Source of the DNA: Flavobacteriales bacterium
GTDB lineage: Bacteria; Bacteroidota; Bacteroidia; Flavobacteriales; JANQLC01
Direction: 5' to 3'
DNA: 64,000 nucleotides
Assembly: GCA_028280815.1 (NCBI GenBank)
Contig: JANQLC010000007.1
Span: 81,574 to 145,573 of the forward strand
Both the position numbers and the translations under genes were made by a program. The notes beneath the pieces are model-generated. The model was not told the origin of the DNA, ran no database searches, and saw only the letters and a program-made list of their open reading frames with translations. Position 1 is the stretch's first letter; each line of letters starts with the position of its first letter. Shown here piece after piece: positions 18,335 through 26,861 of this stretch.

Positions 18335-20850
18335 TGGTCGCTTGAAAAGGAGAACTCGTTTTGGCGCTCGCCTGTAGGTCAGTAAAAAGCATTTTTTATC
18401 GTCTGACGGTTTAAAGAAGCGGACTTGTCCTTTTGTTTCTGCACTGTGTTTCAGTTGCAAAATGCCGACTGCGGCCTATAATTTGCACGGGCCTGAATCG
18501 CCGGCTCTTATTTTTTTGCTCTTATCCCTGTGGTCAGCTGCGCTGGCCCCGCTACGCAGGTTTGGTAAGAGATGGGCATCTAAGGGGTCAACCCCTTGAT
18601 TCTTTATTGTATGTTCTTCTCAATTGGGTAGGGCCTGAAAGGCTGGTGTTGTTTTCTCGTCTTTGTCCTTTTGTGCGCGTTTGGAGGCTTGGGTCTTGTT
18701 TTCTCGCTGCTGTTTGGCCTTTATAAAACGGCTTGTTTTGCGTTGGGGAGTTCCCGCGTTTTTTGCTTTGTTTCGCCGGTGTTTTGACGAACTGTTTTGT
18801 CGGTTGCCTTGCCGGGTTATTGGGTTGTTGTGTTGCGGTGGGCTGACTGGTTTGAGCTGGCTTGGATTGAGCAGCTGGGTTTGGTTTAGATTGGTTTACA
18901 CAAGGTGTTTAAAAGGCGTTTTTGACAGGGGAAATGAAGGCGGCTCGGTGGTGGCTATGGGTGGGTTGATTTGTTCAGTGGGCAGTGTATGGGTCTATCG
19001 GTTGAATTGGGTGGCTTGGATTGGGTTGTTGGGTTTTGTTGTCGATTGTGTTTGTGGGGCTGGCGAATTGTTAGCTCGGTTGGTTGCCTGACTTTGGTTT
19101 GATTGCTCAGGTGCTGGTTTGTCTTCTTGGTTTTTCTTTTGTGTTGGCTTGATTTCCACCCTTTGGTTTTGTTCTCTTGGGCTTGTTTAAGGGTTTGGGG
19201 CTGTTCTTCCGTTTCTGTTTGTCAGTTTAAAAGGGTTTTTGTCCTCAACCTCTTGAAAAGGGAGGCTTGCCTTTTTGGCTTTGTCGTTTGGGGCGTTTGG
19301 TTGGTTGAATTGGGGTGCGGTGTCGTTGTATTGGCTCGGTTGGGTTGGCACAAAGTGTTTGAAAGGTGTTTTTGCCATTGGGAAAAGGCGGGCCCGTCGG
19401 CGGCTTCGGGTCGGGACTTTTTTATGCTAAGCGGTTTTGAGTCAGCGGCGCTTTCGTATTGATAAAGGTTTGCATTTCACTGGCTTGCTGGGTTTGGGTT
19501 GGTTGAGTTGGGTTAGTCGAATTGCTCTATTGGTTTAGTGGGTTGGTCGGGTGGTGGTTGGTTGACTGGCTTGACTTGGTTGGCTTGGGTTGAGTGGGTT
19601 TGTCGGGTTGGATTGTTTGAGTTGATTGACTCGTTGGGCGTAGTGGGTGCGGTTCGATTGGATTACGTCGGTGCGGTTGGCTTGGATGGGTTACAGTGGA
19701 CTGCGCTCGGTTGGTTTGTTGTGGTTCGTTTGGGTTTGTTTCGGCGTGTTGCGTCGATGTGTTCGTTGGGGTTGGGTGATGGTCTTGTGATGCGGCGGTT
19801 GGATTGGGTTGTGATGCAGGGCGTTGCGTTTGTTTCGTTTGTTTTTTTACCATCCTTGAAAGAAATAAACTACTGCTGTTTTGTATGCTTGTGCTGAGTT
19901 GCTTAGCCCCTACTGGGTTGTTGCGTTGCGGTGGATTGGCTGGCTTGGATTGTCGTAGTGGGTCGGTTTGGGCTAGCCGGCTTGGATGCGCTGATCGATT
20001 GCTTCAGTAGCTTGGTATGGCTGGTTTGTCAGTGTGATTCATCGGGTTGGACTGGGTTGATTTGGATTGGCTCGGTGGATTGGTTTAGTGGATTGGGTTG
20101 CTTCGCACGGGTTGGATGGGTTGTGGTGGTGTCTTTGTGTTGATCGATTGTATTCTTCCTCTTCGATTCCTTTGGTATGGGTTTTTTCTGTGGTCGATAT
20201 AGGTGGATTTTAGACTTCTCGTTTTTTGTCCCTTCTCCTGCAGTTGGTTTTTTTGCGTTTGGCTTTCCGCTGATTGGCTTGGGTGGTTTTGGGCTGGATG
20301 GGCTTGTTTGATGCGTTGTTGCGTTGCTGCATGGCGGTGAGTCGTCGCATTGATTGTGTCGGATTGTTTGATAGGCTTTGAAAGAAGTATGACCCTTGCT
20401 GTTTCGGGTGCTTGGTCTCTCTTGGTTTTGTCGGGTGGGCTGGATTGGCTCGTCGGGCGTAGGGGGGTCGTTTGGATTGGGTTAGGTGTGTGCGATTGGG
20501 TTGGATGGTTTGCGGTTGGTCGGCTCGTTTTCTCGGTTTGGCTCTTTTGTGGTGGCTTGAAGCAGGCGGTTTGTTTTCTCCCTTTTGTGCGCGTTTGAAA
20601 ATTCGCAGCCCTTTCCCCTTTGGCCATTTAAAGAGCGGGGATTATTTTTTGCAAAGGCGTATTGTCTTTCTGGTTTTTCCCTTTTGCGGGCCAAAGCGGG
20701 TGTTCTCGTCTTTGATCGCTGGATTGGGCTTTTCGTCTGAGATGTGTTCTCAGTGCGCTTGGGGTCGAAGGCCTGTCGCCCAATCGGTCTGTTGGAGCTT
20801 TTCGGCTGTCTTTGAAAACATCGGTGTAGCGGTCGAAGTGAGGCTCCAAT
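18335..20850 (+). repeat. G+T-rich non-coding composite repeat block, locus 2 (largest)
   Basis: 2.5 kb without a credible gene. The two lines I counted (19561-19620 and 19741-19800) are 83% and 82% G+T. Contains GGNTTGG simple repeats, GTTTGAAAAG-type units and the conserved box GTGTTT(G/A)AAAGG(C/T)GTTTTTG at 18903 and 19354. Confidence 0.75.
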
Positions 20851-23232: not shown

Positions 23233-23651
23233 TCAGCTCTCGGAAAGGGTGGTGGTGTGATCCCGTAACTCCTCACCGAGATGGGTTGTGTTTAAAGTGG
23301 GCAAATTAACAGGCGGAAAGCCCGATAGGTTGGTCAATGTGGAAATATAGGCTCTGATATAGGGAAACAGCAGGGCAGGAGCGTTCACATAAAAAAATGT
23401 ATCCAATTCGTCAAGCGCCGTTTTCTTTTTGAAGCTATAATCAGCTGTTGCGTCAATCTCAATGTGAAATGATCCGTTCTCAGCTTCAATCTCTACGCCT
23501 AAGGACAATTGAAACCTACCCTTTTCTTATCTATTACACCTTTGGGAGAAAAGGCTATGGACAGCTCTTTAGGCAGCTCACCTCTCTTAGGGCACTCGAT
23601 TAATGAACGGGTGATGGTATAGCCTTTAAATTGAGATTTTGAATGTTCCAT
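23233..23651 (-). pseudogene. SecB-like chaperone, interrupted by a single-base frameshift
   Basis: The C-terminal ORF carries the SecB signature NAPALLFPYIRAYISTLTNLSGFPPVNLPTLN. The N-terminal part starts at ATG 23651 (MEHSKSQFKGYTITRS...) and runs into a TAG, while the downstream frame opens in the overlap around 23505-23530. The total of 419 nt is one base short of 140 codons. Confidence 0.7.
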
Positions 23652-23656
23652 ATTGC

Positions 23657-24046
23657 TCAAGCGGCCAGTGCATGGACTTCATCGTGCCGTGGGGTCATGG
23701 CTTTAGCATAAGCACTCAGAAATTTGAATTCGGGAATGGGCTTATCAAGGTGAATTTTCTCCCTATACCCCAACTCGTACCCCAACTTGAGGTCGGCATG
23801 TTCTATCTCGGTTAAGGAGTCCTCCGAAATAAATAGGATATCTTCCTGTAGAAACAAGGATTCAAATTCGTCCCATATTTTTTTCTCTTCCAGTATATAA
23901 TCTTCATCGTTTTCAAAAAAACTCAAAGCAATCACTTCGATTGTATGTCTACCAGTACAGAACCGATATTCATATCGAATTCGGATTTGTGGAAACTTTG
24001 CATGTAGCGCCTTCAATTCTTTCGTTACAAATTCGCTCGCTGTCAC
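23657..24046 (-). CDS. hypothetical acidic protein (129 aa), middle gene of the HEPN/SecB-like operon
   Basis: GTG start with a 4-bp GTGA overlap on the upstream stop; its own stop lies 5 nt before the SecB-like ATG. I recognise no domain. Confidence 0.6.
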   Translation of the reverse strand: MTASEFVTKELKALHAKFPQIRIRYEYRFCTGRHTIEVIALSFFENDEDYILEEKKIWDEFESLFLQEDILFISEDSLTEIEHADLKLGYELGYREKIHLDKPIPEFKFLSAYAKAMTPRHDEVHALAA

Positions 24047-24336
24047 AACTCGAATGTTTGGGTTAGATACCTTTTAATCTCTCTCGCTTTGCGCAAAGCG
24101 GTCTCGCCCTTTTCTATATTGATTTCTATATCGCGGTAGTCCGATTCTATCCTATGTTTTTTTAAATCATCAACCTTTCTACGAAAAAGCTCACTTTCTT
24201 TAGGGCCGAATAATTTTTCTAATTGGCGGACAATGTGATCCCTGACATATAGATGAGTTCCTCCCTTAACAGATTTGCTTTCCGTGTCTTGTTTTTTATA
24301 GCTTATACATAAGACGCTTTTTAGGGTATATTTCAT
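24043..24336 (-). CDS. HEPN-like domain protein (97 aa)
   Basis: KKHRIESDYRDIEI followed by the helix GETALRKAREIKRYL resembles the R..(A/S)DY region and last helix of PF05168-type HEPN domains (from memory, not searched). Confidence 0.5.
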   Translation of the reverse strand: MKYTLKSVLCISYKKQDTESKSVKGGTHLYVRDHIVRQLEKLFGPKESELFRRKVDDLKKHRIESDYRDIEINIEKGETALRKAREIKRYLTQTFEL

Positions 24337-24506
24337 CAGTTGAAAACAGCTGTAATAAGAACAGTGCGCAGCAGGGGCATACAGGGATGCGCTAATCAGT
24401 CAGTTCGGCAGCTTCTTCATTCAGCTTGGATTTTTCTCTAAGCCTGCTCATGGATACCGGGGCAAGGGTACGTTTTTTTGAATATGCGTCGGTTTCGCCG
24501 GTGTCC

Positions 24507-25973: not shown

Positions 25974-26555
25974 CTATGAGGAAACGTGCTCCCAATTTTC
26001 GCCCTTTTTGATGCGGTAGAGTTGCATTTCCGAGATGCCGAATTGTTTGGCGATCATTTTTAAGCGGGTCTTTCGGTTGGGATCGAAGATCCTTCTCTTC
26101 AAGTACTTCACCCGGGTCTCGGTCAGCTTTTTCCCCGCATAGGGCTTGCGGTTTTTATTTTTGGCCTTTCCCAGTATGACATTGGGATTGCGCTCGTGGT
26201 GTTGAACCAATTCGTCTTTGGACACCCATTTCAAATTGGACCAGTGGTTGTTCAACTTGTTGTAATCGATATGGACTATAAATTTTTGCTCTGCTTTCGG
26301 CTTGGGTAAGAAATACTCGGCCACGAGCTGGTGCAGGTACCTGCTCTGATGCAAGAGCTTATCCCGTTTGCTTTTTAACCATACCCGATATTTGAAGACG
26401 GGGTATCCCTCGGCCAAACAGCCTTTTAAGAGCCTACCCTTTTCCAAGTTGGTCTTAAAGCTCATCAAGCGCCCAAAGTCGGAGATGGCATACCGGAATT
26501 TTAAACGGCATTCTAAGGCTACTTCTCTCCATTCTTCTCCAGGGAAGAATCGCAT
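25974..26555 (-). CDS. NUMOD4-motif HNH endonuclease with C-terminal helix-turn-helix
   Basis: GEEWREV...YAISDFGRLMS (NUMOD4), HIDYNKLNNHWSNLKW (HNH_3-type), and a C-terminal MIAKQFGISEMQLYRIKKG. The start is set at ATG 26555. Confidence 0.8.
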   Translation of the reverse strand: MRFFPGEEWREVALECRLKFRYAISDFGRLMSFKTNLEKGRLLKGCLAEGYPVFKYRVWLKSKRDKLLHQSRYLHQLVAEYFLPKPKAEQKFIVHIDYNKLNNHWSNLKWVSKDELVQHHERNPNVILGKAKNKNRKPYAGKKLTETRVKYLKRRIFDPNRKTRLKMIAKQFGISEMQLYRIKKGENWEHVSS

Positions 26556-26861
26556 TATATGTTTTTTGCAAAGGTAAAAATATCGGGCGATAGATTCACT
26601 TCGTTTAACTTGGATGGAAACCTTTGCACCTGGGCTGAAAATGACGGGATGCATTGAAATTTAGACGAGCGATAACTTCTGCGGGATTCAAAGCTGGGAA
26701 AAATGCGTGGATTTGTCAAGAAAATTTGGCTCTACGTGAAAGCTCAGAAAGGGATTTTTGCCAATCGAACAGCGAGTCCAGGATTCAATGGGCTTGGGTT
26801 TCACAGCGCTTAAAGGAATATCCAATATGGACAGCACGAGTATGAGGAGTGCTCAACCCGC

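Follow-up and report, generated by a model that had tools for sequence, protein, structure and literature searches.

The 64,000-nt stretch of a Flavobacteriales genome analyzed here (hereafter the window; contig JANQLC010000007.1 of assembly GCA_028280815.1, positions 81,574 to 145,573 of the forward strand) carries at 23233-24451, on the minus strand, three collinear and tightly coupled genes that probably represent a pseudogenised HEPN-based toxin-antitoxin-chaperone (TAC) module of a kind widespread in Bacteroidota, the residual doubt lying mostly with the catalysis of the HEPN protein and with the trigger. Gene 1 encodes a HEPN protein, gene 2 a small candidate antitoxin and gene 3 a SecB-like chaperone. 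The TGA of gene 1 and the GTG of gene 2 overlap as GTGA at 24043-24046, and 5 nt (GCAAT) separate the stop codon of gene 2 (23657-23659) from the ATG of gene 3 at 23651. An earlier note on this DNA had described this coupling of three open reading frames (ORFs) on the minus strand and proposed a TAC-type module in which a HEPN protein acts with a novel partner; the layout is present in the sequence as described, and the gene linkage, the disordered tail and the LAA-type degron presented below support the proposal. The A+T richness that it had remarked relative to the flanks is also evident. The G+C content of the module is 0.417; lpdA has 0.53, the PRA-PH gene 0.556 and the window as a whole 0.502. 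Such a low G+C content indicates a horizontal origin.

The first gene of the module is longer than it appears. The earlier note had taken gene 1 to be a 97-aa ORF (24043-24336, minus strand) containing KKHRIESDYRD and ALRKAREIKRYL, and both motifs are found there. This ORF, which starts at Met39 and past the invariant helix of the family, matches PF05168 with 24.1 bits (cutoff 22) over only the C-terminal half of the profile. It is the truncated remnant of a frameshifted 135-aa PF05168 HEPN gene, so that the ORF and its HEPN match are real, but the full gene had been missed. The 5′ fragment of the gene (24392..24451, minus strand) begins with an ATG at 24451 and covers codons 1-17 (MSRLREKSKLNEEAAEL), beyond which the shifted frame runs into a TAG at 24392-24394. 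The cause is an extra A at 24400 (GAACTG-A-CTGATT on the minus strand, a +1 frameshift), and the remainder of the gene, codons 18-135 (24043..24399, minus strand), includes the invariant HCSYYSCFQ helix along with H66 and the R-x-ESDY motif. The 5′ fragment agrees with positions 1-17 of the HEPN family model and with the N-termini of the intact proteins at two syntenic loci (L001 and L003), where lpdA and the PRA-PH gene likewise flank the module and gene 1 encodes 140-145 aa. At the site of the extra A, intact relatives read E-L-L-I. The repaired 135-aa protein reaches 28.4 bits against PF05168, with residues 2-128 aligned on profile positions 2-113 of 117.

The HEPN family to which gene 1 belongs comprises 214 members of about 135 aa each. 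The HCSYYSCFQ helix, H29, H66, R100 and the Tyr of the ESDY motif (Tyr105) are invariant in the family alignment. Anantharaman et al. (PMC3710099) describe a HEPN-T variant of PF05168 that has D at the site of the canonical H and a conserved His at another position, and whose genes are often found clustered with restriction-modification systems. The motif of gene 1 together with the invariant H29 and H66 fits this variant at the sequence level, and an RNase activity of gene 1 is predicted on these grounds. A single-sequence search of gene 1 against the PDB gave no matches, and a profile search identified the HEPN chain of 9xbd as the closest solved relative (E=0.0036). This chain carries an R-x-x-S-D-Y motif like that of gene 1 and was deposited together with a nucleotidyltransferase chain. 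By sequence, the HEPN side does tie the gene 1-gene 2 pair to the world of HEPN-MNT (HEPN-nucleotidyltransferase) systems. At the position of the Tyr invariant in the gene 1 family, 9xbc reads SDF where 9xbd reads SDY.

The third gene is likewise interrupted. Its 5′ part (23499..23651, minus strand) starts at the ATG at 23651 and, following a frameshift, ends at a premature TAG (23499-23501), while the 3′ part continues in another frame (23233..23526, minus strand) and contains the SecB motif NAPALLFPYIRAYISTLTNLSGFPPVNLPTLN. The lesion is a 1-nt deletion on the minus strand at 23526..23527, where a GG pair is reduced to a single G (the closely related metagenome contig L006, introduced below, reads GATAAGGAAAAGG, the window GATAAGAAAAGG); the note had recognized the motif and placed a one-base frameshift at 23505-23530, in agreement with this result. 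The repaired protein matches the SecB family PF02556 with 38.3 bits (cutoff 26), and the PADLOC model PD-T4-9_C (CmdC) with E=1e-28, residues 1-134 aligning on profile positions 1-133 of 135; the chaperone of a related locus (L008) matches the latter over its full length with E=3e-32. With 40.7 bits against a required 143, the repaired protein remains far below the NCBIfam equivalog cutoff for housekeeping SecB. Since it matches PF02556 and CmdC and scores so far under the equivalog cutoffs, gene 3 is assigned as a SecB of the toxin-antitoxin type and not as an export chaperone. The HEPN and SecB assignments made earlier by eye are both borne out by these profile searches. A tblastn search with the chaperone against plasmids and phages returned only TACs of Lactobacillales with helix-turn-helix (HTH) proteins and one SecB fragment, and no CmdTAC was among the matches. 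These Lactobacillales operons are the nearest plasmid-borne relatives of the chaperone; the one on Pediococcus plasmid NZ_CP104772.1 (3230-4577) is a TAC-like operon of a hypothetical protein, an HTH protein and SecB, and adjoins a YafQ/RelB-DinJ pair and an integrase.

Between these two damaged genes lies an intact one. Gene 2 (23657-24046, minus strand) encodes 129 aa from a GTG start and is acidic (pI 5.0; 26 D+E versus 16 K+R) and without the GS and DxD motifs, just as the earlier note had stated; it has no Pfam match. An AlphaFold2 model computed from an alignment of 110 sequences shows two parts. Residues 1-90 (23777..24046, minus strand) are folded, with a predicted local distance difference test (pLDDT) score of about 71-93 per 10-residue block, and form an alpha-beta-beta-alpha-beta-beta domain, the candidate antitoxin domain. 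The C-terminal tail, residues 91-129 (23660..23776, minus strand), is predicted to be disordered at residues 93-124 (pLDDT <50), has conserved aromatic positions with the consensus F.V.GF, is a putative chaperone-addiction (ChAD) segment, and ends in H-A-L-A-A (codons 23660-23674). The last residues are conserved in the family: ALAA is found at the C-terminus of 101 of 120 close homologues and YALAA of 90 of these 120, and AA closes 94 of 146 distant representatives. NYALAA is the C-terminal end of the E. coli ssrA tag, and the (Y)ALAA end of gene 2 is, from its sequence, presumably an ssrA-like ClpXP degron. An aliphatic C-terminal degron (LAA, AA or VA) is a feature of TAC antitoxins described for CmdA and M. 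tuberculosis HigA1, and gene 2 shares it. With an extension at its C-terminus that is predicted to be disordered and an end that reads as a degron for ClpX, gene 2 shows both of the sequence features that mark TAC antitoxins. For CmdA, which ends in LAA, it has been reported that ClpXP degrades the protein unless CmdC is present, and that changing AA to DD abolishes this (PMC11618068; bioRxiv 10.1101/2024.02.24.581848).

A word-indexed search, which found five relatives, had made gene 2 look like an orphan; this proved to be an artefact of sensitivity. A profile built from diverse middle genes retrieved 181 homologues, all annotated as 'hypothetical' and none with a Pfam domain, and an exhaustive HMMER scan over 1.84 billion representatives yielded 1446 clusters (50% identity) at E<=1e-3 and 769 at E<=1e-10. 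When 110 members of the family were compared with Pfam at E<=10, no nucleotidyltransferase or antitoxin family was matched, and the weak MJ1010-like_2nd matches in 21 of the 110 are not interpretable; a search of the PDB with the gene 2 profile gave a chance ribosomal match only. The structural comparison that the note had suggested for the 129-aa protein revealed the folded domain and the disordered tail, with a resemblance to MntA that is weak and unproven: the top PDB match in Foldseek is the MntA antitoxin 6m6w_A (E=0.012, probability 0.97, template-modelling score (TM) 0.34), and the MNT antitoxin chains 6m6v_A, 7ae2_B and 5yep_A and a chain of the HEPN-MNT entry 7ae9 are also listed, amid generic alpha/beta folds. 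An hhalign alignment of the family with MNTs is collinear and sets YEYR opposite the GS motif and SHIIE opposite SDIDL, and the catalytic GS and DxD motifs are absent from the gene 2 family. Gene 2 was not called an MNT in view of an hhalign probability of 1.3% and of the missing motifs; judging from the model, an MNT-derived, catalytically dead fold is possible, not established.

The gene 2 superfamily varies in its tail and in its domain number. A subgroup (P0322, P0329, P0344, P0369-P0374, P0378 and P0386; loci L041 and L045) has longer tails with a conserved end of the KKDSE..SESFF type and not ALAA, still preceded by the same HEPN family, which suggests a different degron or partner. Two proteins, P0241 (215 aa) and P0342 (252 aa), hold two tandem gene 2 N-terminal domains in one polypeptide.

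The association of the three genes is conserved well beyond the window. A search with the gene 2 profile, in which each GTDB species was represented by a single genome, gave 30 loci, almost all in Bacteroidota (Prolixibacteraceae, Marinilabiliaceae, Bacteroidales, Flavobacteriales and Sphingobacteriia), the others being one each from Thiohalospira, Chlorobiota and a metagenome-assembled genome named 'Mycoplasma'. The family hidden Markov models place HEPN, gene 2 and SecB collinearly along the same strand in 28 of the 30 loci, with spacings of 0-25 nt or 4-nt overlaps; one locus (L034), with a gap of 65 nt, departs from this spacing. Tight collinear linkage is further found in L001, L007-L010 and L042-44, and a trio of 135, 125 and 137 aa recurs in Draconibacterium, Saccharicrinis and other Bacteroidota, with intact modules in, for example, the Draconibacterium locus L008 and Saccharicrinis carchari (FXTB01000007.1). 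Even divergent gene 2 subfamilies keep part of the arrangement, with HEPN upstream in L041 and L045 and a SecB-like gene downstream in L042-44. Nearly every locus long enough to show them has HEPN and SecB-like genes linked to the middle gene, as the proposed module would require, and the three-gene arrangement is not due to chance. At some loci the neighbours are defence genes, including the type I restriction-modification gene HsdR, GmrSD and McrBC, as well as matches to GajB (UvrD-type helicase), DRT and Dpd models.

Comparison with a near-identical copy dates the two lesions of the window relative to each other. The TARA metagenome contig L006 is identical to the window at 2419 of 2428 positions in blastn (99.6%), with 8 single-nucleotide polymorphisms (SNPs) and a single gap. 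It shares the extra A in gene 1 and has an intact gene 3 of 139 aa, so that the missing G in gene 3 is the sole indel between the two. The gene 1 lesion is treated as real and as fixed in the lineage of the window, because two assemblies that differ by SNPs carry it and because it lies outside any homopolymer, in the context CTG-A-CTG. The lesion of gene 3, specific to the window, would be a later mutation, an assembly error being less likely. Two other accounts of the frameshifts were rejected. Programmed frameshifting in gene 1 does not fit, as CUG-A-CUG offers no slippery re-pairing and relatives use a single frame; nor does phase variation, as neither indel lies in a repeat tract. The earlier suggestion of a 'decaying or phase-off' module is therefore upheld in its first half, with two frameshifts, and not in its second.

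Decay of the module has occurred repeatedly, and it always involves gene 1. Across all loci we count eight decayed lineages, and gene 1 is lost in 8 of 8. It is frameshifted in the lineage of the window and L006 and again in L023, interrupted by an in-frame stop in L019 and truncated at its 5′ end in L020. Genes 1 and 3 are fragmented in L026; gene 1 is gone and gene 2 truncated in L040; genes 1, 2 and 3 are all truncated in L004/L005; and L030 retains a gene 2 remnant only. In the copies with a single lesion (L006, L019 and L023), that lesion falls in gene 1 in 3 of 3 cases, for which the random chance among three genes of similar size is about 0.04. Among the loci examined, none combines an intact gene 1 with a broken gene 2 or gene 3. 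Such toxin-first decay would be expected of a toxic gene 1 that cells survive only with the help of genes 2 and 3, and it explains the present state of the window, where the toxin died first and the chaperone followed. In L004 (4493-6024), and likewise in L005, the truncated module (HEPN 59 aa, gene 2 99 aa, SecB 76 aa) is flanked by two tyrosine-recombinase-like C-terminal fragments and adjoins an EVE/Mrr_N-McrB-McrC system; given these flanks and this neighbour, the L004 copy is regarded as a remnant inside a mobile defence island.

The module resembles three groups of known systems without coinciding with any. CmdTAC (PD-T4-9) of E. coli has the same toxin-antitoxin-chaperone order, a chaperone whose model, CmdC, is matched over its full length, and an antitoxin of about 121-125 aa without a recognisable domain and with an LAA end, the ClpXP degron needed for CmdA turnover. 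The toxin differs, being a 135-aa HEPN protein here and an mRNA ADP-ribosyltransferase in CmdT, as do the hosts, which here are Bacteroidota. Genes 1 (in truncated, repaired and intact form) and 2 have no match to PD-T4-9_A or PD-T4-9_B, and PADLOC holds no model for either; because of its different toxin the module is not CmdTAC. The classical TACs (M. tuberculosis HigBA1-SecB^TA, MqsRAC and HicAB-SecB) share with it a toxin-first tricistron, a dedicated SecB-like chaperone and an antitoxin whose C-terminus extends as a disordered tail (predicted here for gene 2) and closes with an aliphatic signal for ClpX (PMC3581621, PMC5105189). Whereas those systems combine DNA-binding antitoxins of the HTH or ribbon-helix-helix type (HigA, MqsA, HicB) with RNase toxins of the RelE/HigB, MqsR or HicA families, neither partner here belongs to these families, and no DNA-binding domain was detected in gene 2 by profile searches. 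HEPN-MNT systems (HepT/MntA, type VII, including the PF05168-type pair of 9xbd) share the PF05168 HEPN protein with its R-x-x-S-D-Y motif and a partner whose best, weak fold match is MntA. The order of the genes is reversed, however, with HEPN first here, the partner lacks GS/DxD and significant similarity to MNT profiles, and the module adds a ChAD-like tail and a degron to the partner together with an obligatory third gene for a chaperone. Having no nucleotidyltransferase, the reversed order and an obligatory chaperone, the module is not a canonical HEPN-MNT system. Described TAC pairs are HigBA, MqsRA, HicAB, those with MqsA-like or HTH-like antitoxins, and CmdTA (PMC3581621, PMC5105189, PMC9519451), and the toxin comes first in all described TACs (PMC3581621). 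Our search of the literature on TAC, CmdTAC, HEPN-MNT and HEPN with SecB-like proteins in Bacteroidota, most subscription-journal papers lying outside its scope, found no HEPN-based TAC. The module is apparently an undescribed HEPN-based variant, which agrees with the impression of novelty in the earlier note.

Read by analogy with CmdTAC and HigBAC, these results suggest how an intact module may work. Gene 1 would supply a 135-aa PF05168-type HEPN protein, the predicted RNase toxin, and gene 2 an antitoxin of about 125 aa, whose N-terminal domain, possibly derived from an MNT fold, would bind and block the HEPN RNase; neutralisation is probably by binding and not by AMPylation. A SecB-like tetramer would bind the disordered tail of gene 2 co-translationally and hide its ALAA end from ClpXP. 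Titration of the chaperone by a competing client, for which a freshly synthesised structural protein of a phage is the likeliest candidate, would then let ClpXP remove the antitoxin and free the HEPN toxin, whereupon translation would stop and the infected cell would be arrested. Recent work has shown that the chaperone is the means by which TAC systems sense capsid or tail proteins of phages. In the lineage of the window, the frameshift at 24400 would first have killed the toxin gene, the rest would have become dispensable, and the chaperone frameshift at 23526/7 may have followed.

Several observations weigh against this interpretation. The motif of gene 1 is R-x-E-S-D-Y and not the canonical Rx4-6H, and no His follows R100. 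Gene 2 has no significant sequence link to known antitoxins in the Pfam, NCBIfam, PADLOC and PDB profile searches, an hhalign comparison of its family with five MNTs taken from PDB alignments was not significant (at the probability given above), and its tail is unlike the classical SecB-binding motifs of E. coli, which are basic and aromatic. The gene 3 frameshift, seen in the window only, may have arisen in assembly. Housekeeping genes, and no defence island, surround the locus in the window and in its syntenic relatives. Finally, the toxicity of gene 1, its neutralisation by gene 2, the addiction to or dependence on the chaperone, the role of ClpXP and the phage trigger are all attributed by analogy with described systems.

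Some of these points would suit a module that is not a toxin-antitoxin system at all, in which the HEPN subunit binds RNA or nucleotides but is not catalytic, with genes 2 and 3 acting as a chaperone-gated regulator or sensor that has another output. The missing canonical histidine and the position of some loci among housekeeping genes are in its favour, as is the presence of inactive members among PF05168 HEPN domains (PMC3710099). We nevertheless consider it unlikely: the architecture, the degron and the CmdC-like chaperone mirror the TAC logic throughout, a toxic gene would be predicted to be lost selectively, as gene 1 is in decayed copies, and defence genes are neighbours at several loci. 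It is less likely still that the module is functional in the living organism, an active HEPN-based TAC whose frameshifts are assembly errors or minority variants. The absence of the gene 3 deletion from the 99.6%-identical L006 and the fully intact, conserved gene 2 speak for such a state, but both assemblies have the gene 1 insertion, and with 8 SNPs between them they are not one and the same consensus; the insertion lies in CTG-A-CTG and not in a homopolymer, and toxin-gene lesions are common in other lineages. Hardly credible is that gene 2 is an active, divergent nucleotidyltransferase which AMPylates Tyr105 of the HEPN protein in a type VII-like manner, SecB only aiding its folding: the four MNT antitoxin structures among the top Foldseek matches (6m6w_A, 6m6v_A, 7ae2_B and 5yep_A) and the invariant Tyr of ESDY, aligned with a Phe residue of 9xbc, are outweighed by YEYR and SHIIE where GS and DxD should stand, by the 0 of 110 members matching a nucleotidyltransferase family in Pfam at E<=10 and by the weakness of that fold match amid generic alpha/beta folds.

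The surroundings of the module show further differences between the window and its relatives. Between lpdA and the HEPN gene, the window has a spacer of 55 nt (24452-24506). In the syntenic L001 and L003 this spacer measures 800-950 nt and contains 5-10 degenerate repeats of 30-50 nt (AAAAATAAGCCCCTTTTCAAAC..GTCCCACAGGGAC) with a small hairpin (L001:3754-4566 and L003:3637-4581). These repeats have no Rfam match and no copies in the window; they may be an array like repetitive extragenic palindromes (REP) or miniature inverted-repeat transposable elements (MITE), or a regulatory region of the module, deleted in the lineage of the window. A scan of the locus for sigma-70 promoters and terminators gave scores not above those of shuffled sequences, the method being uninformative for Bacteroidota, and no transfer-messenger RNA was found within the window. 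Just downstream of prfB, a region of about 2.1 kb (18600-20700) is strongly biased on the plus strand (AT skew -0.47 to -0.66, GC skew +0.32 to +0.60) and G/T-rich, with degenerate GGATTGG/GGTTGG-like motifs, weak tandem repeats and no ORF above 180 aa; its counterpart in L001 (8200-9400) has the same strand bias in a weaker form. Between lpdA and an isochorismate-synthase-like gene lies a 226-aa ORF (25974-26654, minus strand; G+C about 0.45), and the counterparts in L001 and L003 at this position have NUMOD4 and HNH_3 domains, which are typical of homing endonucleases.

Beyond the pseudogenised HEPN-based TAC module proposed for the window, a bolder reading may be entertained, though we hold it only tentatively and think it rather doubtful as a whole: a large, unrecognised anti-phage TAC family of Bacteroidota that is a rewired type VII HEPN-MNT system, in which the MNT has become a non-catalytic, stoichiometric antitoxin with an encoded ssrA tag and the CmdC-like chaperone serves as a phage-protein sensor gating ClpXP. 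If true, it would be the first evolutionary and mechanistic bridge from HEPN-MNT to TAC, and a defence system peculiar to a phylum that has been little studied.

The modular control of diverse toxins through ChAD and SecB is an established concept, and the copy in the window, as a remnant, is less important in itself; it illustrates the toxin-first decay of an addiction module. The end of the gene 2 family, a near-perfect mimic of the ssrA tag (NYALAA), would be an unusually clean natural example of a stability switch. To our knowledge, TACs have so far been known mostly in Proteobacteria, Actinobacteria and Firmicutes. If the interpretation as a HEPN-based TAC is true, a HEPN toxin and a wholly unannotated antitoxin domain, with no Pfam model and 1446 clusters, would join the TACs, defence-system annotation tools would gain a new and sizeable family, and TACs would extend to Bacteroidota.

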